This document shows positions 51,666 through 64,000 of a DNA stretch of 64,000 nucleotides, in pieces. Positions within the stretch are counted from its first letter, which is position 1, and each line of letters starts with the position of its first letter. Where the stretch lies: NCBI GenBank assembly GCA_963761695.1, contig CAVXIB010000001.1, positions 200,057 through 264,056 on the forward strand, given 5' to 3'. The position numbers and the translations under genes are program-made. The DNA is from an uncultured Actinomycetota bacterium. Lineage in GTDB: Bacteria; Actinomycetota; Actinomycetes; Mycobacteriales; SCTD01. The notes under the pieces are model-generated. The model had not been told where the DNA came from and did not search any database. It saw only the letters and a program-made list of their open reading frames with translations.

Positions 51666-52256
51666 GTGAGCGACCGACGCCCCGGGGACGACACCCCCAG
51701 CCGCGGCTTCGGTGCACCCGGCTTCGGCGCCCCGACCGGTGGCCGCGGCTTCGGTCCCCCCTCGGGGGCGCCCGTGCCCGGGTTCGGCGGTGGCCCGACG
51801 CCCTCCGGCCCTGCTCCCGGCGCCCCCTCGTTCGGACCCCCGGCGACCCCTGCAGGACCGGGGGGCTTCGGGCCCCGGCCGCAGGCCCCTGCGGCGTCGG
51901 GCGGCCCCGGCTTCGGTGACCGGCCCGGTGGCTCGGTGCTCCCGGAGACCACCGACGCCGTCACGGCACCACTCGGTCTGCTGGCGCTCGCCGGCGGGCT
52001 CGTGGCCGTCGGGCTGCTGCTCGCCGCCCTCGCCCACGGCCGACCGGTGCTCGCCGTGCTGGCCTGGTTGCTCGCCGGCTTCGGGGCCATCGGCGCCCTG
52101 GGCGTGTTCACCGTGACCGACGCCCGGCGGCGCACGGCGCCCTGGTACACCGGCACCGCGTCGGCCGGCCTGCTCCAGGCGGGGCTCGCCGCGGCCGCCG
52201 TCCTGGTCGTCGCGCTCGCCTCCTACCAGTTCGCCGACTGGCTGGCCCGCCGGTGA
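51666..52256 (+). CDS. Operon gene A: membrane protein with GFG/Pro-rich disordered N-terminus and 3 TM helices
   Basis: Repeated GFG/SFG motifs followed by three hydrophobic segments. The stop overlaps the next start (GTGA). Confidence 0.75.
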   Translation: MSDRRPGDDTPSRGFGAPGFGAPTGGRGFGPPSGAPVPGFGGGPTPSGPAPGAPSFGPPATPAGPGGFGPRPQAPAASGGPGFGDRPGGSVLPETTDAVTAPLGLLALAGGLVAVGLLLAALAHGRPVLAVLAWLLAGFGAIGALGVFTVTDARRRTAPWYTGTASAGLLQAGLAAAAVLVVALASYQFADWLARR

Positions 52257-54994
52257 CCCGGGTCCTGCGTGCCGCACTGGCCACGCTCCTGCTCCTCGGT
52301 GCGGTCGTGCTCCTGACCGCGACACCGACGACCGCCGCACCCCGGCTCCCCACCCCGCTCACCACCCCTGCTCACCACACCCCGGGCTCAGGCCGCCACC
52401 GGTGACGCCGTCCAGCAGTTCGGCGCCTGCCTCAGCGAGCAGAAGAAGGGCGACCTGCTCCTGATGCTGGACCAGTCCGGGAGCCTGCGCCAGACCGACC
52501 CGGAGGACGTCCGCGTCTCCGCGTCGGCCTTCCTGCTCAAGCAGCTCAGCCAGACGGCCGCCGCGGCGAAGGCGTCCCTCGACGTCGCCGTCGCGGGCTT
52601 CGACGTCGGCTACCAGCGCACCGTCGCCTGGCAGCGACTCGACGCGGCCTCCCTGCCGGCCGTCGTGCGCGGCGTCGAGGCCTACCGCGACCGTGACAGC
52701 GGCATCGACACCGACTACGTCAACGCCATCGCCGGGGCCCGCGACGAGCTGCGTGCGCGCCAGCGCTCCGAGGGAGGTCGCTGCCAGGTCCTGGTCTGGT
52801 TCAGCGACGGGCAGTTCGACCTCGACGTCCGCACCACCGCGAGCAAGGCCGAGCGGTACGGGACCAGCAAGGCCTACGCCCCCGGAGCCGACCTGCGCAC
52901 CGAGGCGGGGACCACGCGAGCCGTGCAGGCCGGGACCACCTCGCTGTGCCGCAGCGGCGGGGTCGCCGACCAGCTGCGCGCCGCCAAGGTGCTGACCTTC
53001 GCCGTCGGGCTCGGCAAGCAGGAGCAATACGGCCTCATGCGCAGCATCGCCGTCGGAGCCGATCCGCAGTCCGGCCCGTGTGGCGCGCAGCCGGCCGGGG
53101 TCGTCGGGGACTTTCGCGCCGCGGACGAGGTCTCGGACCTGGTCTTCGCGCTGAACAGCTACACCGGGCTGGTCCCCCCGTCGACACGACCAGCGGCGTC
53201 TGTGCCCGCACCTCCTGTGCCGGAGCGGCCCGCACCTTCGTCCTGGACGCCTCGATCCGCGACGTCGACGTCCTGGCCGGGACGACGGCGCCGAAGGTCG
53301 ACATCCTGCTGAGCGGACCGGGCGGCGGCAGCTCGGCCCGGTTCCACTTCGAGACGCCGGGGGTGGTCGCGACGCAGACCGTGAGCGGCCAGCAGGTCGG
53401 CGCGGAGTGGCTCAGCGACCGCCAGGTGCAGATCGACCTGTCGCGGGCCGACCTCAAGGGGTGGGGCGGGCAGTGGACCCTCGTGCCCGTGGCACCGCAG
53501 GGTGCTCCCGCGGGCACCCGGGCCCGTACCCAGCTGCGCATCACGGGCGACCTCGTGCCCCGGCTCGACGGCGCGCCCGAGCTGCGGGCCGACGCGGACG
53601 CCCGGGTGGCCGTCGGCATCGGCAGCGAGCGCGACGGCAAGCCGGTCGCGGTCACCGAGGTCCTGGGCACCGCACGCGTCTCCGCGAGCCTGGTGTCGGC
53701 CGGGGGTCCGGTGAAGCCGATCGCCGAGGGAGTGGGCCTGGCGACCGCCGCGGCGGGACTGGGCGTCGACCTCAGCGGCTTCCCCCCGGGGCCCGCCGTG
53801 CTCGAGCTGCGCCTCCTGGTGCAGACCGCCGGAACGACGGTCGGGGGCCGGGCGGTGGCGGGCACGCGACTGGCCGAGCGGCGCACCACCGTCCCCGTGA
53901 CCGTCGTTCCACCGCGGGAGTTCCCCCGGGTCACCTCCGCCACCCTCGACCTCGGCCGGCGGGAGGGTGTCGGTCCGCACGACGCCGCCCTGCCGCTCGC
54001 CGGACCCGGGTGCGTGTGGCTGGAGAAGGCCGACGTCAAGACCGGTCCCTCCGGAACCGGGGCTGCCCTCACCTCGACCGCCCGCAGCGCGGACACCTGC
54101 CTGGAGGTCGACGGCACCGGGAGCCTGCCGCTGGCGCTGCGGCTGGACGACAGCGGCAACGGGACCCTGTCCGGGTTGCTCACCGTGCGGCTCGCGCCCG
54201 AGGGGGAGCCGGGGCGGGCGCTGTCGACGACCGTGCCGTTCGTCGGCGACCTCGTGCGGCCCCTCAACACCTCGGTGCTCGGGCTGACGTTCGCGCTCGC
54301 CCTGCTCCTCGGGATCGGGCTGCCGCTGCTGTTCCTCTACGCCCTGCGCTGGTGGACGGCCCGGATTCCCGGCGAGGCCCTGCGGGTCGGCACCGTCCCG
54401 GTGCGGCTCGTCGGCCGGGACGTGCAGCGCGACGGCGGGCCCTTCCAGCTCGACCTCGCCAGGGACACCCGCTTCCAGGGGGTGCCCGAGTCCGGCTTCC
54501 GGCGCCTGGACGTCGAGGGACTCGTGCTGCAGACCCGCACCGGCGTGTCCCCCACCTCGACGCCGTGGACCGAGGTGACCGCCGCGGGCTCGGTCGTCGT
54601 CACGGCCGACGGCGCGGGGCGGCTTCCCCTCGGGGTCCACGGGTCATGGGTCGCCCTGCTCGACCCCGGCCGGCCGGCCGAGGCGAAGGTCGTGGTGCTC
54701 CTGCCCACCGACGCCAGCCCCGCCATGCTCGACCAGGTGGCCCGCGAGATCCGCAGCCGGTTGCCCCAGCTGGCCCAGGAGGCCCGTGATCTCGTGCCGT
54801 CGCCGGGCGCCGGACCCGAGGGCGACGGCGGCTCCCCCGCGCCCGGCGGGTTCGGCACGCCGCCTCCCGGGTCCCCGATGCCGGGCGGGTTCGGCACGCC
54901 GCCCCCCGGGTCCCCGCCTCCAGGGTCTCCACCTCCCGGGGAGTTCGGCGCGCGACCACCCGGTGGGTTCTCCCCTCCCCCCGCGGCTCCCTGA
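52253..54994 (+). CDS. Operon gene B: signal peptide + vWA (MIDAS) + beta-rich ectodomain + TM + cytoplasmic Pro/Gly tail (apparent frameshifts at ~52370 and ~53175)
   Basis: MTRVLRAALATLLLLGAVVLLTA signal peptide, DLLLMLDQSGS (DxSxS), DTDY, VWFSDG, TM LGLTFALALLLGIGLPLLFLYAL, PGGFGTPPPGSP repeats. Confidence 0.85.
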
Positions 54995-55045
54995 CCGACC
55001 GGGCCCCGGCCCGACCTCGCTCGTCCCCTCTCGATCGGAGCTCCT

Positions 55046-58000
55046 GTGCGTCCCTTCCTCCTCGTCGGCTGCGGTGGGTCCGGCGGCGTCACGCTGCAGT
55101 TCCTGCTGGACCAGCTGGCCGCCGACCTGTCGCTCAGGGGTGTGACAAGGTCCCGGACGCCTGGCAGTTCCTGCACGTCGACGTGCCCGTCTCCCCGGAC
55201 GGCGTCCGGGCGGGGCTGCCGCCGGTCGTCGACCGCGCACCCCAACGGGACCTACGCCGGGCTGGCCCCCGCCGCCGGCTCCTACGCGGGAGTCGCCAAC
55301 GCCCTGGTGCAGCAGCTTCTCGCCGCCGACAGCTACGCGCAGCTCGCCACCTGGTTCAGCAACCCGGCCAAGGTACCCCGTGCCCATCGGCGAGGGCGCC
55401 GGTCAGCGTCGCGCGGTCGGCCGCGTGGTCACGCTCGCCCGCCTCGCAGGTGCGCGACGGGCTCGCACCGCCGTCACCAGCATGAACGCCGCCGGGGTGC
55501 GGGGGGAGCTACGGACGCTCGGCCAGCAAGGTCTCGCCCGGGGAGCGAGGCCTGGTCGACAGCCCGCCCCTGGTCGATCGTGGTGTCGTCCATGGCCGGT
55601 GGGGCCGGCGCCAGCATGGTGCTCGACGTCTGCCGCGTGCTCAGCCAGCAGCCGAGCGTCGACCCGGCGTCGACGGCACTGTTCCTCTACACGCCCGAGA
55701 TCTTCGAGCACTGCCCGACAGCCGCGTCAGCGGCGTCCCCGGCAACGCCCTGGCGATGACCGGGGAGCTGCTGCCACCCAGCTCGGCGCGGCTGCCGCCG
55801 ACGACGTCGACATCTTCGAGGCGCTCGGGCTGGGGCAGGGCGCGTGCCGGACGGTCCGCGCCGTTCGGCCGCGTCTTCCCGATCGGGGCGCGCATCGGCG
55901 AGAGCGGCGCCGCCTTCGCCGACGGCAAGCTCGACCAGATCTACCGCGGCATCGGCCGCGGGCTGGCGGCCCTGATGCTCAGCGGCGAGGCCACGCAGCG
56001 CTGGGTCGGCTTCGACCTGACCAACGGCGGCGGCGCTCGACCCGATCGGGCCGACTTCGGCTGGTGCGCCGCCGAAGAAGGACCTGCAGTGGGGCTCGTT
56101 CGGCTTCGCCCAGCTCAACATGGGACGCGACCGGTACGCCGAGTACGCCGCCCAGCGACTGGCCCGCGCAGGGGGTCCAGCAGCTGGTCGCACGGGCACC
56201 TCCAGCCGGGCGACCCCGGGACGGACCAGGAGCAGCGCGACCGGCTGGTGGCCGAGCGGCTCCCGGCCTTCATCGCTGCGCCTGGGCTCCCGGCTCCGGG
56301 TCAGAGCCTCGAGCACTGGTTCGACGGGTCTTCGTCAACGCCAGCTGGGCCAGCGGCGCAGGCGACTCGTCGACCGACACGTCGAGCGCGAGCTCGCCGC
56401 AGGTGCCGGCGGCGCAGCTGCAGCAGTGGCTCGCCAACGTGCAGAACGCCGTCGCAGACACGGCGCCCCGGCTCACGACGACGCCGCCAGCCGAGCGGCT
56501 ACCGACATCGTCTACGCCTGGTACGAGCGGACCCTGCCCACGACCGAGGCGCCGTCGAGCGGGCCGTCAGCACCTTCGGCCTGCCGGCGACGCTCGCGAT
56601 GCTCGAACCGCGTCGGGCGCGGCCTCGACGCCATGGCCCGGGCATGACGCGAGCGCGGCCCAGGGCTCCGGCAGCGACGCCGCGCTGTCCGACCCGACGT
56701 GTGCGCCAGAGCCGCCGCCGTCGGCAGGGCAACATCGGCCTCGCGGCACGGATCCGTGCAGCTCGTCCGGGACGGGCTACGCGCGACGTCCTGCGACCGG
56801 GCCGTCGCTCGGACACGCCGCGGCCAAGCTCGCGGAGGTGCTCGGCGCGCTGCGCGAGCGAGCTACCTCGCGCCGCTGCGCGCGGCGCTCGGCGACGCGT
56901 CCGCACCGCTGCGAGACGCGGTCGGGAGCGCCGCAAGCGCGGCGCCCTCGCTGCAGCTGCGCACCGACGAGTTCGCCGAGTGGCCGGTCGAGCGCTGCGA
57001 CCAGCCGGTGCCCGCGCCGGTTCACGCACGCGCAGAACGAGGTGCTGCTCATCGACGCCGCCCAGTTCGCCGGGCAGTTCGACCAGCACGTGCTGCGCAC
57101 CATGAGCCTCACCGACCGTCCGGTGCTCGAACGCCCCGGACGCCCTCGACCTCGCCGCCCGCGAGATCGTGCTGGCCCAGTGGCCCACCACCGGGGCCCC
57201 GGTCGTGGAGCGGCTGCTCGAGCAGCGCGTGCGCTGGCGCCCCTCGGCGTTGTCGACCGAGCCGGGCGGCAACGAGCCGGTCGCCACCAAGCGCGGTCAG
57301 TACCGGCTGGCCGTGGACCCGAGGGAGGTGCTCGACCGGGCCCGTCGTGGACGGGGCGGCCGACGTACCCGTTCGAGCAGTTCGTCAGCACAGCCCTGCG
57401 CGACTACGTCGGCGCCGAGGAGCTCGGCGAGTCGGTGCGGGCCGAGCGGCTCGAGGAGGTCGCGCGCAAGTTCCGCGAGCACCCTGCAGCTGGCCCACCC
57501 GCTGGTGGCCGTCAACCCCGAGCTGGTGTCACGGCTGCACGGGGGGCAGCAGGCGCGGGTCGCCTACAAGTTCAGCGACGTCCCGTTCCAGGGCCTGGCC
57601 CTCGCCGACGACCTCAAGCGCTTCCTGGACGCGCCCGGCACGCACCCCTCCTCGGTGGACTTCCTGGACAGCGCCCTGCGGTCGACGTCGTCCGCGACGA
57701 GGATCGACGTCTTCGGCTCCTACCCGCCACTGGCCCCGCTGGCCTTCACCTCGCTGCTGACGCCCCTGGCCAGCGGCTGGGCCGAGGCCAACCTGCCCGC
57801 GGCGCGGGAGTCGTTCTACAGCGGGCGACGGTCCCGGCGCCTGGCCGGCGCGCTGCCGATGAACGAGCGGCAGCGACGGGCGATCGTGGCCGGCTGGTTC
57901 GTCGCTCGTCTGACCGGGCGGCTGCGCCTGCCGGGAGAGGTCAGCGGCGTGTCTGCCGTCCAGGTCTGGGACGACGCCGACAACGGCTGGCTGTCGTTCC

Positions 58001-58551
58001 CCCACCCCCTCATCGTCCCAGCCCTCGAGCTCAACCGGACGCCCAACAACTACCTGCCCGCCGTGCTGCTGTCCTACCTGCTGGCCGCCGCGCAGGCGAC
58101 GGCCAACGAGAGCCTGCTCCCGCTGCGTCCCTACACGCTGCTGCGCAAGCACTGGGACAGCTCGACCGAGGGTGTCGACCTCCGCGTCGACGACAACCCG
58201 GCGCTGCTGACCGCCACCGAGCGCTTCCGGGCCCACTTCGCCGGCGGCCGCATCCCCGACGGCGCCCCCAAGGCGTACGCGACGCCGCCGACCGGCGACC
58301 TCGTGGTGGACAAGAAGGCGGTCGTCGACCGGCTGGTCGTGGTCCGCGACACCGTCGCCGCCGACTACCTGCCCCCCGCAGAGGGGGCGTCGCAGACCGC
58401 GGGCCGGTTCGCGACGCTGAAGCGACCGGACGACCTCTGGTCGATCCCGCTGTTCCACGAGGTCGCCCCGGACGTCCACTGGGCCACCTCGCAGCTCATC
58501 CGGGTCATCCAGGACGGCGTGGGCGCCGCCGAGTCCGACGTGCTGATCTGA
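55046..58551 (+). CDS. Operon gene C: large FtsZ/tubulin-like GTPase (Tubulin_2/FtsZ-like family; many apparent frameshifts at 55.1-57.5 kb)
   Basis: FLLVGCGGSGG, WQFLHVDVP, GAGQRRAVGR, VVSSMAGGAGASM.LDV, LFLYTPEIF, then a long helical C-terminal region. Confidence 0.85.
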
Positions 58552-61335
58552 TGGGCCGCGCCGTCGTCGTGGTCCTCGCGCCACCCGGAGCCGTGCCCGC
58601 CGCCGTCCGCGACGTCCTGCGCGACTGGGTCTCGCTCGGGCTCGTCCAGCCTTTGGTCTGGGTGGAGGCGGTCGACGTCGATCCGGGCGGCGCGCTGTCG
58701 AGCGTCGTCGGGACGCACCTGCTCCCCGGCGACGCCCCGCGCGTCCGGGTGCAGGACCACCTCGCGAACGAGCGCTCGCTGGAGGTGCTCCGCCTCGTGG
58801 CCCTCGGGTCGGTCGGCGCGGAGACGACGCTGGTCCCGGCCGCGCTCGCCGGCCACCTGAACACCCAGCTGAGCGCGGCCGCCCCGGGCCGGCTGGTGGC
58901 CCTGCAGTGCGTGCTGACGAGGCAGGGCGCCGGGGGGTGGGAGCCCGACCTCGCCGTTCCCGGCTGGCGCACGCTCGTCGTCGCCCCGGAGGACTCCTGG
59001 AGCCCGGGGCGCACCACCACGGAGTTCGCCGTCGACGGCAACGACGCGGAGTTCGTCGCCCACGCCGCGGCCGGGCTGGCCTCGGTGGCCGGTCTGTGGA
59101 CGGGCGTCGGCCAGGGACCGTTCGACGGCGCGTCCTCGGCCAGCGACGAGCCGCAGGTGGTGCGGGCGTACCTGCGGCGCCTCGACACCGCGGCGCTGAC
59201 CAGCCGGCTCCGGCGCACCCTGACCGACGTCTCGGCCGGCCTCCCGCTCCCGCAGAGCACCCAGGGCCGGATCGAGGCCATGCAGGACCCGGCGGCCGGC
59301 GTCGGCCAGGTGGCGCAGGCGCTGGTCGACCAGCACCCCGCGCTGTTCGAGGTGGCCTGGGTGCAGGCCGAGCAGGTCGCCAAGAAGCGGATCACCGCGT
59401 GGGCCGCGATCGCGCTCTTCTTCGCCTTCCTGTGGAGCGCGCTGCGGGGGGCTCCGGGCAACCTGCTGGCCCGGCTGCAGGACCGCGGGGCGATCGCCAT
59501 CGCCCGTCGGGTGCAGGCAGCCCTGTTCGGGGGCGACAGCCGCTACGAGGTGGTCATGCGCGGTCTGGACGCCTCCGGCCAGACGGCGGGCGTCGGAGAC
59601 CTGTCGGCCGCGGCCGACGACGTCCGCGACCGGCTGGCGACCGTCGTGCCGACCGAGGGCGCCGCCACCGACCTGTCCGGCTTCTGGAGCGACGTCGCCG
59701 CCGGCGGCCTGTCCCTCGCCGACGGCGGCAACCACGGCTCCACCGTCGGTCCGCTCACCGTCGCCGGCACGCCCCGCGTCGTGCGCGACACGGCCCACGT
59801 CGCCCCCGCCCCGACCGACGCCTTCCCGCTTCCTCCCGCGGTGGCGGCCAGGCTGGGAACGCCGTCGGTGTCGCCCTACGACCAGCTGGCCCAGCAGCAG
59901 GCCGCCGAGGTCCTGGCTCAGGTCGCCCCCAGCGATCCCGCCAACGAAGCGCTGGCACGGTGGCGGCAGCGGACGGCGGCCAGCTACACCGGCCTGCTCG
60001 GGGCGCGCCTGTCGGGCGACGTCGAGTTCCGGCGGCAGTCGCTGAGCAGCCTGCTCGACCAGCTCCGGGTCGACGGCGACGGCGTGGACGAGTCCGAGCT
60101 CGCCCGCCCGCTGCGCGCGGCCAGGAGCATCCTGCTCAGCAGCCTGATCGGCCTCGTCGTGATCGCCGGCCTCACCTACCTCGTGCACCGGCTGGAGCTG
60201 CTGACCACCCTGGTGCTCACGCTGTCGGTCGTCGTGCTGGTGATCGGCTGGCTGGTCAGCCAGGTGCTCGCCCTGCTGGCGGAGCAGCGCAAGGTGTTCG
60301 CGCTGATGAACGCCCAGACCAGGCGCGACGAGGCGCTCGCCCTGGCCGGGCGCAACGTGCCCATCGCCGCCGCGGCGCTGTACCTGTCGACCACCCTCTA
60401 CCAGCAGTACCTGGCCTGGGCACCGGTGCTCGGTCGCTTCCTGCGCGAGCCCTTCGGTCCCGTGCCGGAGCCCGCTCCGGCGACCCGCCTGCACGGCACC
60501 CTTCCCCGGGCGGTCGGGTTCGGCGTGGCCGACACCGACGACGAGCGGCTGGCCGCCGTCGCCCACGACCTGGGGGGAGTGGTCTTCGACCGCGGCTGGC
60601 TGCAACCCCTGTGGGAGGCGTTCCTGGCCGAGGCCCCACGGCTGCTCGGCACCGAGCGGACTGGCCCTGCGCGACGACCCGCGCCTGCTCTACCAGGACT
60701 CCGCCCGCGACGAGGACGGCCTGCTGCGCCGCTGGTCGGCCGCCGTCGTCGAGCAGGGCGTCCCGGCAGGAGCCGGCGACGCCCTGTGGCGCCGGGCCCG
60801 GGCCGCCCTGGTCGGCCGGGGCGCGGCACGCCTGTCGGAGGACCTGCTGACCCACGTCGAGGTCCAGGCGCAGCAGTCCCACGGCATCACCGAACCGGTC
60901 ACCGGCAGGCAGTTCTTCACCGAGCTCACCGACGCGCTCGCCGACGTGGACCGCCACTACCTGTCGCCGCGCAGCTTCACCGACCTCGCGGTGACGCAGG
61001 ACCGGCATCGGGTCGCGGCCACGGTCGCGCTGGGTCGCAGCGACGTGGCGACCCTCGGCACGGCTGGTACGACGTCGACCGGCGTCCGCTGGGTGGAGCC
61101 GCAGGAGCGTGAGGACGGCGATCTCGACCAGTTCCTCGTCATCGTGCAGACCACCTCCGCCCTGTCCGGATCGCTGCTGACCCTGGCGTCCCGGCCGGAC
61201 GCACCGGCGGACTTCTCGACCGGGCCGGTGACCCGACCGACCGGCCGCTTCGGTGCTCCCGGCGCTCCCGAACCCAGCGGTTTCCGCCAGCCCGACGTCC
61301 AGACCACCTCCGCCGACGAGACCCCCCTCATCTGA
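58551..61335 (+). CDS. Operon gene D: large protein with alpha/beta N-terminal domain, helical stalk and TM hairpin (apparent frameshift near 60665)
   Basis: ATG overlaps the gene C stop (TGATG). MGRAVVVVL, GW.TLVVAPED, TM pair at ~60130-60280, ends DETPLI. Confidence 0.8.
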
Positions 61336-61336
61336 C

Positions 61337-62347
61337 GTGGTCGACTCCCTGCCCTCCCTCTGCTCGGCGCAGCCTCGTGCTGCTGCTCCTCACGGCTGCC
61401 CTGTTCTGGGGCGTGGCCGGGGCGGCCGCGGCCCGGCGCTCGGGTCGGTCGCGGCTGCTGGGCGCTCGTCGGCGGGCTCCTGCCCGGACTCGGCGCGCCC
61501 CTGATGCTCCTCCCGAGGGCCGGTGTCCGCACGGACCGCGCGCCCGCCGCGGCGGCTGTCCCCACCCTGCCGGAGCGGACCCTCCCCGCCGCGCCGTGGC
61601 CGGTCCCTGAACCCGGCCCCGGTTCTCCCCGTCGCCGGCTCGGGCTTCGCGCAGCAGGCGAGGGGCGGTGGGTTCGCCAGTCGCACGTCCGGGCGGGCGG
61701 TCGCCCCTCCGAGCACCGGCTTCGCGTCCACAGCCTCCGCAGCTCCCGGTCTCGGTGCTCCCGGTGCCGGTGCTCCCGGTGCCGGTGCCGGTGCCGGTGC
61801 CCCCGGGTTCGCCGTCGCCGCCCGGCGGACCGTGGCGCCCCCGGTGGTCAGCGCGGGTCCCTTCCGCGGCAGCGGGGTCGGCGCACCGCGGGGGCCTGGT
61901 CGCTGCTGCTCGCCCTCCCGGCGGCGCTCGCGGCGCTCGCCCTGCTGTCGGCATCCGCTCAGCCGTGGCTGGTCGTGCAGGCCTCCACCGTGAAGGCAGC
62001 GGGATCGGGGCCGGCACGTTCGGCTTCTCCGGACTGCTGGTCGTCGTCGGCCGCGCTCGCCATGGTGGCCCTCGCCGTCGCGCAGGTCGCCCGCCCGCGC
62101 GGCAGCTGGCCCGTGCTGGGGGCCGCCGTCGGAGCCACCGCCCTGCTGGTGTCGCTGGAGATCCTGCTGGCCACGGACACCGCCCGCGACCTCGTCGCGC
62201 TCGCCGGAGACCGCGTGCCCCGCGGCACCGGCGTCCGCTCCGGCGCTGGCGCCCGGTCGCTGCTGCTGGCCGGCGCGCTCGCCTCCCTCTGGTCGGTGCT
62301 GGCGATCGCCACCTGCCCTGCCCGCGTCGATCTCGCCCCGGCGCTAG
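61337..62347 (+). CDS. Operon gene E: multi-TM membrane protein with central Gly/Ala/Pro/Phe low-complexity linker (several apparent frameshifts; end approximate)
   Basis: Hydrophobic segments stitched across frames (LLLLTAALFWGVAGA; WSLLLALPAALAALALLS; WPVLGAAVGATALLVSLEILL; SLLLAGALASLWSVLAIA) and (GCCGGT)n repeats. Confidence 0.55.
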
Positions 62348-62374
62348 CCCGACCCGTTCAGGAGCCGCACCCTC

Positions 62375-64000
62375 ATGTCCGATCCCCGCCTGCTGCAGGC
62401 CCTGCTCGCCTGGCGTCAGGACCAGCTGGACTCGGCGCGGCCGAGGCCGCCCTGCCTCTGGTCGGCGACCTCACCACCATCGCCTCGACCGAAGGGGTCA
62501 ACCGGGCGGCGCTCGACACGCTGCCGCTGCAGCGGCTCGACCTCGTCCTGCAGTTCGCCCCCGGGGTGCTCAGCACGCTCCGGCAGGCGCGCAAGGCGGT
62601 AGAGGCGGCCGGACCGCTCCCGGAGCCGGTTCCGCCGTCGGCCGAGCCGGCCCGGTCCCCGGCGCAGAACCCCCCAGGAGTCGCCGCGTTCGCGCCGCCG
62701 GGCCGGCGCCGCCCCGACGCCGGCCCCGCCCGCCGCTGACCCGGGATTCTTCGCGTGGAGCAACCGCGAGACTCCCGCTGCGGAGGTCGCCCCGCCCCGG
62801 AGGCCGGGAGCCGGTCGGGGCCGGTCGACGGCGACGGCCCCGTCCCGTCCTCGCGCCGGCAGTCCCGCCAACGCGGCCCCGAACGCGACGAGCCGTCGCT
62901 GCGCGCGGAGGGCTTCGCCGCGTTCGACCTCGCCGCAGCCGTACCCGCAGAGGTCGGCCGGCCGCGGACCACGCCGACCGACCAGGGCATCCGGCTGAGC
63001 GTGGGAGCCCGACTCGCCCCCGGGCAGACGGTGCTGTACCGGGTGGTGCACCGGGACGACTTCGAGGTGTGGAGCCCGGACGAGGCCACCGTCCTGTCGG
63101 TCACGACGACGACCGCCGCAGTCGACCCGGGACCGTTCAGCGCCGCCGTGCGCTTCTACGCGGTCTGGGTGAACGTGGCGCGGACGAGGCCGCGGCCCGC
63201 GGCGGCCCAGCCCAGGCTGCTCGTCAAGGGGGAGGTGGTCGGCCGCCCCCACGCGGGTCCGGGTCGAGCAGGACCATGGCACGGTCTACGTCTCCTGGGA
63301 CGCCGTCGGGGCGGTCGAGCGGGTGGAGGTGCTCAGGGTGCCCGTCGCGGAGGCGGCGACGTCCACCGGCTACCAGCGCAGGTTCTCCGTCGGCGAGGTG
63401 CGCGGTCGCCGCAGCTACCAGGACGACGGCTGCGAACCCGGCACCGAGTACGAGTACCGCCTGTTCGCCGGCTGGACCGACCCGGCGACCGGCCTGGAGC
63501 GCACCAGCGCGCCGGCGACCGCGCGGGTCCTCGTCGGCACGGTGCTCACGCCGGTGCGGCGGCTCGACATCGCCGAGCGCGTCGTCGGCGACCGGACCGT
63601 CGTCGACCTCGCCTGGGACCAGCCCAGCCGCCACGACGTGGTCGTGTACCGGACCGCGACCCCTCCCTCCACCGGGGCGGCCCTGGCCGACCTCGACGTG
63701 TCGGCCCTGCCCGGGGCCGGACTGCCCGACGACCAGCGGCTCAGGGCCGAGCCGCACCTGGACGCCGGCCGGGCCGGGCTGTCCGGCATCGCCTGGCCGC
63801 AGGACTGGCCCCGGGTCCACTTCACCGCCGTCTCGATCAGCGGGACCGCTGCCCGCATCGGTGACACGGCCACCCTCAGCCGCACCAGCCGGGTCGAGGA
63901 CATCCGGATCGTGGAGCGGGTGGACTGGCAGCTGCTGACCTTCAGCTGGCCGTCCGGGGCGGTGTCGGTCTCCGTGTCGACCACGCCCCGGGGCATGACG
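62375..64000 (+). CDS. Operon gene F (3' truncated): HRDC-like N-terminus, Pro-rich linker, tandem FNIII-like beta-sandwich domains (several apparent frameshifts)
   Basis: AGGAG Shine-Dalgarno then ATG. MSDPRLLQALLAWRQ; VLYRVV; VYVSWD..VERVEVLR; Y.D.GCEPGTEYEYRLFA; VDLAWDQP..VVVYRT; LLTFSWP. Confidence 0.7.

Follow-up and report, generated by a model that had tools for sequence, protein, structure and literature searches.

Operons that encode a tubulin-like protein together with a vWA protein have been predicted computationally in two studies, as the FtsZl1/vWA operons, for which a role in membrane remodelling was proposed (Makarova and Koonin 2010, PMC2875224), and as the actinobacterial tubulin theme of the GAP1-N2 DO-GTPase systems (Kaur et al. 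2020, PMC7159879), and the cellular role predicted in print is a conflict system or membrane remodelling. Here, we analysed a window of 64,000 nucleotides from an uncultured Actinomycetota bacterium (assembly GCA_963761695.1, contig CAVXIB010000001.1, positions 200,057 to 264,056), the + strand of which carries what is, by its predicted domains, an actinobacterial tubulin (FtsZl1)/vWA/GAP1-N2/DO-GTPase operon. The operon spans positions 51666-64000 of the window and its continuation (locus L001) in an indel-rich assembly that is 76% complete, with the gene order A (three transmembrane (TM) segments), B (vWA, one TM segment), C (Tubulin_2), D (TM hairpin), E (multi-TM) and F (FNIII repeats), followed in L001 by GAP1-N2/M, a vWA/TerF-like gene, a zinc-ribbon GTPase, TerD, RDD, Hsp70 and DnaJ/TPR.

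As described in the text of PMC7159879, the tubulin theme shares with this locus a tubulin with a C-terminal helical region, a membrane vWA protein, an FNIII-repeat protein, GAP1-N2/M and, probably, a zinc-ribbon GTPase, whereas the tubulin and Hsp70 themes, non-overlapping in that text, are here joined in that the Hsp70 and DnaJ/TPR genes come after the GTPase. The FtsZl1/vWA operons, as described in the text of PMC2875224, share an FtsZ-like domain with a coiled coil and a helical domain, a vWA domain with DxSxS, a GTPase and many TM partners. The text of PMC7159879 describes no tail motifs and makes no mention of low-complexity, short linear or DUF4190, and two supplementary files contain no DPF or NPF; likewise, a search of the text and six supplements of PMC2875224 turned up nothing on tail motifs or on matched C-termini.

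In this locus and its homologues, unrelated membrane proteins (A, B, E and the operon-linked DUF4190 proteins of mycobacteria) carry Pro/Gly-rich tails with about five Phe or Trp residues in a fixed local order. The motif is often [D/N]P-F/W-[G/D], starts near the free terminus and is matched in style within each operon, the window having the G-F-G style, and the last one to three residues of tubulin C and protein D form a second, separate matched signal. The matching motifs suggest docking tags that tie each membrane-protein set to its own machine, not nuclear-pore-like repeats, and we consider it somewhat probable that the tails act as arrays of short linear motifs for multivalent docking, which cluster the membrane components on an operon-encoded scaffold.

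Phe-Gly motifs in the tails of the window operon

The original prediction, made from the window sequence, had claimed FG-type low-complexity tails on proteins A, B, D and E, and motifs were found on all four, with Phe above the Pro/Gly background of the genome. The N-terminal tail of gene A (51666-51962; Phe positions read from the sequence) contains seven Phe codons at 51708-51912, each followed by Gly (six GFG and one SFG), giving 7 FG in 99 residues or about 1 per 14. The C-terminal tail of gene B (54791-54994) contains four Phe motifs (GGFG twice, EFG and GGFS) and an internal duplication, with PGGFGTPPPGSP present twice, while the gene D tail contains three (DFS, RFG and GFR) and the gene E linker, at about 61600-61860, four (SGFA, GGFA, TGFA and PGFA). 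All 18 Phe codons of these motifs are TTC. The motifs of gene E are read in the open reading frame (ORF) at 61523-61993, the other open frame across the linker (ORF 61504-62739) consisting of Arg/Cys runs, and the GFA frame is favoured because in the homologues L144 and L205 the corresponding linker is punctuated by Trp; this part of the prediction therefore stands only with a frame that requires two compensating indels in the indel-rich assembly. The regular spacing of Phe that had also been claimed was not seen, as the intervals range over 5-16 residues in the A tail and 8-18 in the B tail.

Phe accounts for 4.4% of the six operon segments (344 residues, 8 GFG) and for 0.63% of 671 other Pro/Gly low-complexity segments of the genome (32,791 residues, 6 GFG), a background that includes out-of-frame noise, so that Phe and GFG are both more frequent in the operon segments, in line with the original prediction. 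In a ranking of these segments by Phe count, the A tail came first, while B (fourth) and D (sixth) shared their places with others. With a more stringent background (205 segments, Phe 1.16%), the Poisson probabilities were 2e-4 for A, 8e-3 for B, 0.02 for D and 0.02 for E. Shuffling within the tails gave 0.5 GFG against 6 observed in gene A (p 5e-5) and 0.3 against 2 in gene B (p 0.025; FG in gene B, p 0.06).

A high-GC (guanine plus cytosine) artefact as the source of the Phe motifs, already doubted in the original prediction, was rejected on the strength of the enrichment over both genome backgrounds and of homologous operons of 46-50% GC, in which the B Pro/Gly tail is kept with or without aromatics. 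It is extremely unlikely that the motifs arose neutrally, through drift and slippage in low-complexity sequence and the composition of the genome: such an origin would agree with the duplication in the B tail, with the loss of motifs in some cassettes and with a genome-level co-variation of Gln with all tested linkers, but neither with the Phe enrichment over genome background and shuffles nor with the tails kept at 46-50% GC. That one tail (A or B) had been copied from the other as DNA was likewise rejected, the longest common substring being 9.2 against 8.9 by chance in 26 operons, and this absence of shared DNA is a further point against drift.

An aromatic motif class conserved among homologues

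Homologous loci were gathered from genome searches, from 80 named genomes (mostly Mycobacteriales) and from 80 metagenome contigs, with genes called by a simple script of our own; the nearest named homologues come from a Frankiales metagenome-assembled genome. Clustering of 162 loci at 70% tubulin identity gave 50 clusters, in 32 of which the A and B tails both reached 25 residues or more. Loci with a shorter A or B tail were excluded, and motif-less cassettes are accordingly absent from the A-B tests; L019, L034, L051, L057, L066, L214 and L220 were dropped before the co-variation counts as fragments or frameshifted, and L024, L222 and L231 for short or uncertain A tails. For the Streptomyces/Micromonospora-type loci (L010-L018, L146-L154), which are outside the statistics, the models of A, of the B cytoplasmic part and of D gave no match; many of their B tails end in words resembling DPF or DDW. 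An independent set of 69 A tails was taken from 50%-identity representatives.

The homologous tails are punctuated in [D/N]P-F, W-type or G-W-G style, rarely with Tyr, near the free terminus. In the 32 operons, [DN]P[FW] occurred 27 times in A tails and 58 times in B tails against 2.4 and 2.9 after shuffling, being present in 18 A tails and 17 B tails, and [FW]G occurred 61 and 91 times against 28 and 37, whereas G[FW] was not enriched over shuffles in either tail. The median was five aromatics per tail; the first Phe or Trp lay within 10 residues of the A start in 29/32 operons and the last within 8 residues of the B end in 28/32. At least two Phe or Trp were found in 67/69 A homologue tails (F 3.7%, W 3.3%, Y 0.9%), of which 32 were Phe-dominant and 27 Trp-dominant, while FNIII linkers of the same operons had 0.9% Phe and no [DN]P[FW]. 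Literal GFG was confined to 7/32 A tails and 6/32 B tails, so that what the homologues keep, with respect to the expectation that they might lack the motif, is the aromatic class and not the GFG word itself. G-aromatic-G is the style of the window's lineage, because the nearest B homologues have GGFG (P0006) and GWG motifs (P0007).

The likeness to FG nucleoporins that had been proposed proved weak. As described in part of PMC8938434, Nup98 shares with the A tail FG motifs in Gly/Pro/Ser spacers at about 1 per 12-14 residues, but the model Nup98 domain has 52 motifs against 4-7 per tail here, where Phe is exchangeable with Trp and homologues often show an acidic context. With too few motifs and Phe not conserved, the tails are not an FG-nucleoporin domain. 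That the aromatics instead dip into the inner membrane face and tether or curve the bilayer with no protein partner is very unlikely; the motif bearers are indeed membrane proteins, Phe and Trp interchange, and membrane remodelling is predicted for such operons in the text of PMC2875224, but lipid insertion needs neither an operon-matched style nor an acidic [DN]P prefix, and no basic amphipathic pattern was apparent in the tails on inspection.

In a more distant subtype among the loci outside the statistics (L010-L018, L146-L153), there is no A and a different D, and acidic DPF, DDW or NPW words end B and sometimes C or D; D of L018 has an inserted PPGGFG repeat, and in L010 a PycTM gene lies upstream.

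Tail style is matched between A and B within operons

Despite the lack of any relationship between proteins A and B, their tails agree in aromatic style within operons, with an aromatic-type cosine of 0.93 against 0.79 when permuted (p 5e-5) and a Trp-fraction correlation of rho 0.63. Phylogenetic independent contrasts across 31 operons retained the agreement for the Trp share (r 0.54, p 0.002) and the P-aromatic share (r 0.58, p 0.0006). The A tail did not co-vary with the FNIII linker except in Gln, which co-varies with all linkers tested and is a genome-level effect. In two genomes with two operons each (L007/L008 and L063/L094), every operon had its own matched style.

The DUF4190 membrane proteins offer a contrast within single genomes. 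By an eye count in three mycobacterial genomes, [DN]PF was present in 10/10 operon-linked but 1/13 unlinked DUF4190 tails; a second match among the unlinked proteins lay upstream of the likely start, and several of their tails were Tyr-rich instead. Up to six DUF4190 membrane genes stand in arrays flanking the mycobacterial operon (L020, L237; G329:C162, about 63100-67200 and 83600-85000), all with NPF/DPF tails, and one of them is fused to PknH_C.

Both contrasts bear on a further alternative, that the tails dock on a host factor outside the operon, such as a chaperone, a protease or a division or elongation protein, the C/D ends then perhaps being degradation or sorting signals. Styles that differ between two operons of one genome (L007 versus L008, L063 versus L094) and unlinked DUF4190 paralogues mostly without the motif in the same genomes make this distinctly unlikely, despite the Hsp70 and DnaJ/TPR genes just downstream in the window genome and a receptor pocket screen of C and D that gave no signal. 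Other Phe-punctuated Gly/Pro tails of this genome, by their sequence probably those of DnaJ (G/F regions), IF2 (linker) and SSB, also count on its side.

Matched C-termini of tubulin C and protein D

The last residues of C and D agree within an operon, and the ending differs between operons: VLI/PLI in the window and DFN/MYN, ERF/FRF, QIW/SIW, GLM/LVM, PGL/PDL, IFV/TFV and EEE/EDD elsewhere. The last residue was identical in 26/38 clusters, a count that keeps the frameshifted D end of L157 as a mismatch, and in 10/18 deep lineages, chosen mainly by tree position, against 6% in off-diagonal pairings (p 2e-5); mismatches include L211, L212, L217 and L222. The end of C showed no significant match to the ends of A, B, F or G. 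Because at least two Phe or Trp were present in the internal D tail of only 13/36 homologues, a weak conservation, the conserved signal in D is its terminus and not the internal FG motifs.

A short hydrophobic motif that ends a flexible linker and is used for docking is familiar from the FtsZ C-terminal peptide and the SSB C-terminal tail. Here, unlike in those tails, the terminal motif is common to two proteins of the operon and its identity changes between operons.

Candidate receptors and folds of B and D

Four-gene A-B-C-D cassettes (L007, L008, L021-L026) have no FNIII, GAP1 or GTPase gene nearby, and in four of them (L007, L023, L025 and L026) two ORFs make up D. The tail motifs are kept in L007, L008, L023 and L025, whose genomes have no GAP1-N2 and/or GTPase match to the queries used, and a receptor would therefore be expected among A-D, with C, D and the B cytoplasmic domain as candidates.

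The B cytoplasmic domain (54350-54790) was modelled as a confident fold (predicted local distance difference test score, pLDDT, 90.6). A fold search with it returned nothing above Z 4.5 or at E 0.001, the beta-adaptin appendage at Z 3.5 being not above background, and by this comparison no EH or appendage domain was identified. A complex prediction of the L063 B cytoplasmic domain and tail with the C C-terminal and D N-terminal domains scored 0.00 against a mark of 0.32 and was uninformative. The D N-terminal domain is possibly a degenerate tubulin fold, as judged from its predicted model, which aligned with OdinTubulin at Z 8.3 (174 aligned residues, root-mean-square deviation 4.7, the best non-helical match); an atlas match to a Tubulin_2 cluster scored 0.84 and serves as a lead only, while a profile comparison of C with D by hhalign gave no match (probability 0.5%) and Foldseek returned nothing for the domain at E 0.001.

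Evidence for and against operon-encoded docking

The fixed order, terminal position and low valency of the motifs, their acquisition by linked genes and their operon-specific style together fit a pocket encoded by the operon. The original prediction had offered a common docking motif for one partner as one outcome, and this idea gains from motifs that are enriched, ordered, near the free terminus, common to unrelated membrane proteins and co-varying between A and B.

Several results weigh against this reading. The window's own tails contain no [DN]PF and have no acidic or Pro prefix, and the contrasts gave no significant link between A and B for the G-aromatic share (r 0.25, p 0.18). In nearest-relative controls, the aromatic type was modestly better matched within operons (20 better against 9 worse of 32), as was the last C/D residue (12 against 9 of 38), and for 3-mers 10 were better and 13 worse. 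Binary independent-pair tests were underpowered and not significant, with only two pairs for the Trp type and six pairs for the C/D end (p at least 0.125). The B Phe fraction correlated weakly with the FNIII linker (r 0.41, p 0.04). The linked DUF4190 proteins are not independent cases, because all belong to one subfamily, and Mycobacteriales make up most of the sample. The count of terminal positions may look too favourable, as seven A starts had been cut back by hand and some others extended by rule. B tails had no Phe or Trp in 4/8 four-gene cassettes (L021, L022, L024 and L026), and the motif is thus not essential to the minimal unit. A screen for receptor pocket columns lost in the motif-less cassettes found 9 in C and 8 in D, against 8 and 7 in the reverse control. 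Finally, A and B co-vary in the make-up of their spacers no less strongly than in their aromatics (Gly r 0.51, Ser 0.51, Pro 0.37), a match that a simple pocket does not predict.

This last result bears most directly on the main alternative to docking, receptor-free stickers and spacers, in which the A, B and E tails would cohere through their aromatics in a two-dimensional condensate and a matched composition would allow mixing. Such cohesion as the whole explanation is unlikely. It accommodates a spacer co-variation that is mostly not shared with the FNIII linker or the D tail, an FG density of the A tail near that of Nup98 (1 per 12) and the loose context in which P, G, S or D precedes the aromatic; it sits poorly with a median of 5 aromatics per tail against 52 in the model FG domain, with a strict [DN]P-aromatic order 10-20 times above shuffles, with the terminal placement of the motifs and with the avoidance of Tyr in the tails, and it leaves the matched free C-termini of C and D unexplained. 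Tyr is a common sticker residue. Docking and receptor-free condensation are not mutually exclusive, and the tails may have a clustering or condensate outcome, which is kept in play because the spacers co-vary between A and B too.

Gene parts and surroundings of the operon

All genes described here lie on the + strand. Gene A (51666..52256) encodes a small three-TM protein (P0001), recognised by a core hidden Markov model built from homologues (E 9e-25) and with 92 further homologues. Gene B (52253..54994, with frameshifts near 52400 and 53190 by frame reading) encodes a signal peptide, a vWA domain (DQSGS), a beta-rich ectodomain, one TM segment, a cytoplasmic beta domain with a helix and the tail; it is a predicted membrane vWA protein, with Pfam VWA_2 above cut-off, a tblastn match to B of L020, and the signal peptide and TM segment apparent in the sequence. 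Gene C (55046..58551) encodes an FtsZl1/Tubulin_2 protein with a helical middle and a conserved C-terminal domain, identified by PF13809 (32.5 bits against a cut-off of 27) and by tblastn pieces to L020 and L007. It is interrupted by several frameshifts in this assembly, its terminal VLI is encoded at 58540-58548, and it overlaps D in a TGATG; its homologues are 1,100-1,200 residues long with a C-terminal helical region.

Gene D (58551..61335, model pLDDT 83) encodes an N-terminal alpha/beta domain, long helices, a TM hairpin and a tail with RFG and SGF, with a frameshift near 60700 and a terminal PLI at 61324-61332 that matches C. Gene E (61337..62378, gene ends approximate) is a multi-TM gene read in several frames, placed by tblastn to E of L144 (E 1.5e-8) and by a frame profile. 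Gene F (62375..64000), running past the window end, encodes an FNIII-repeat protein by tblastn to F of L020 (E 3e-52), which itself matches Fn3_SaeA clusters at 0.96.

The GAP1 N2 and M domains, single copy in the genome, were both above cut-off (PF20013, E 2.6e-18; PF20014, E 7.6e-7). The GTPase of the window genome shows DVAGE and four motifs of the CxxC type, and it shares 42% identity with that of L020 (E 4e-76); it has no direct Pfam match, and the L020 GTPase matched PF19993 below cut-off (E 3.7e-5). A general Pfam scan, with no search aimed at them, revealed neither HRDC on the FNIII protein nor FNIII repeats in the vWA protein, and NCBIfam gave no matches for 10 proteins. A search of 77 further genomes from the window's family, many of them incomplete, did not recover the tubulin alignment, and viral contigs did not match the GTPase patterns; two Rhodococcus megaplasmid records attest plasmid occurrence.

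After the GTPase, a same-strand block (L001:9741-14781; G000:C1 about 269800-274840) contains TerD, RDD, Hsp70, DnaJ/TPR and a TM coiled-coil gene, and its RDD protein has a Tyr-Gly tail, not a Phe tail. On inspection of gene calls, the TerD-to-DnaJ/TPR block was not apparent directly after the GTPase in L235-L237. A Pseudonocardia metagenome locus (L105:923-6578) has a PP2C-like phosphatase and a stand-alone vWA gene upstream of gene A, a possible mixing of described themes. Elsewhere in the window genome, an unrelated protein (G000:C16:280608) has two DPF motifs at its start and then a Tyr-Gly tail.

Discussion

In the docking mechanism that we propose, the tails would lie on the cytoplasmic side and be bound there through their aromatics, weakly and repeatedly, by a folded pocket. 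This pocket would belong to a scaffold encoded in the operon, for which the tubulin-like C and its partner D are the likeliest candidates. Its binding would gather the membrane proteins in a patch beneath the vWA receptor, while the matched ends of C and D would dock at a second shared site. If the pocket drifted, all tails using it would follow, which would insulate two operons of one cell.

The mode would resemble the NPF/DPF networks of endocytosis, in which multivalent docking goes together with clustering. According to parts of the endocytosis literature (PMC12370899, PMC2238750), multiple Phe motifs in disordered regions, as in the tails described here, are bound there by a promiscuous folded pocket with clustering, and the promiscuous EH domains of Eps15, which take NPF as well as other Phe motifs, form condensates (PMC12370899). 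The tails of this study differ in being bacterial and on integral membrane proteins, and the window has GFG and not NPF or DPF; the resemblance is presumably convergent, not by descent.

A broader picture, possible but on balance doubtful, is of a bacterial tubulin system, scattered by horizontal transfer, that organises membrane receptors by an endocytosis-like motif network with two operon-specific codes, namely the aromatic motifs and the matched C-termini of a tubulin and its membrane-anchored pseudo-tubulin twin. Both codes would co-evolve with their pockets, insulate paralogous systems and admit new membrane genes, such as the DUF4190 arrays, through a three-residue tag, and multivalent binding would condense the patch.

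No experimental study of these operons was found in the literature searched, a coverage that leaves out most subscription journals, and the two comparative papers were the sole relevant results. The system itself was already predicted in print in 2010 and 2020, and the tail motifs are an unreported feature within that literature; new here are the GFG/GWG variant, the controlled operon-matched co-variation, the DUF4190 contrast and the C/D terminal code. A laboratory host for the system probably exists, because in control searches Corynebacterium glutamicum had matches to both Tubulin_2 and GAP1-N2 above cut-off. The motifs provide the first residue-level handles on the system, with which its assembly becomes directly testable. 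If the docking reading is true, an operon in which short motifs co-vary over several mutually unrelated proteins would offer an exceptionally clear case of bacterial motif-receptor co-evolution and a convergent parallel to the NPF/DPF networks.

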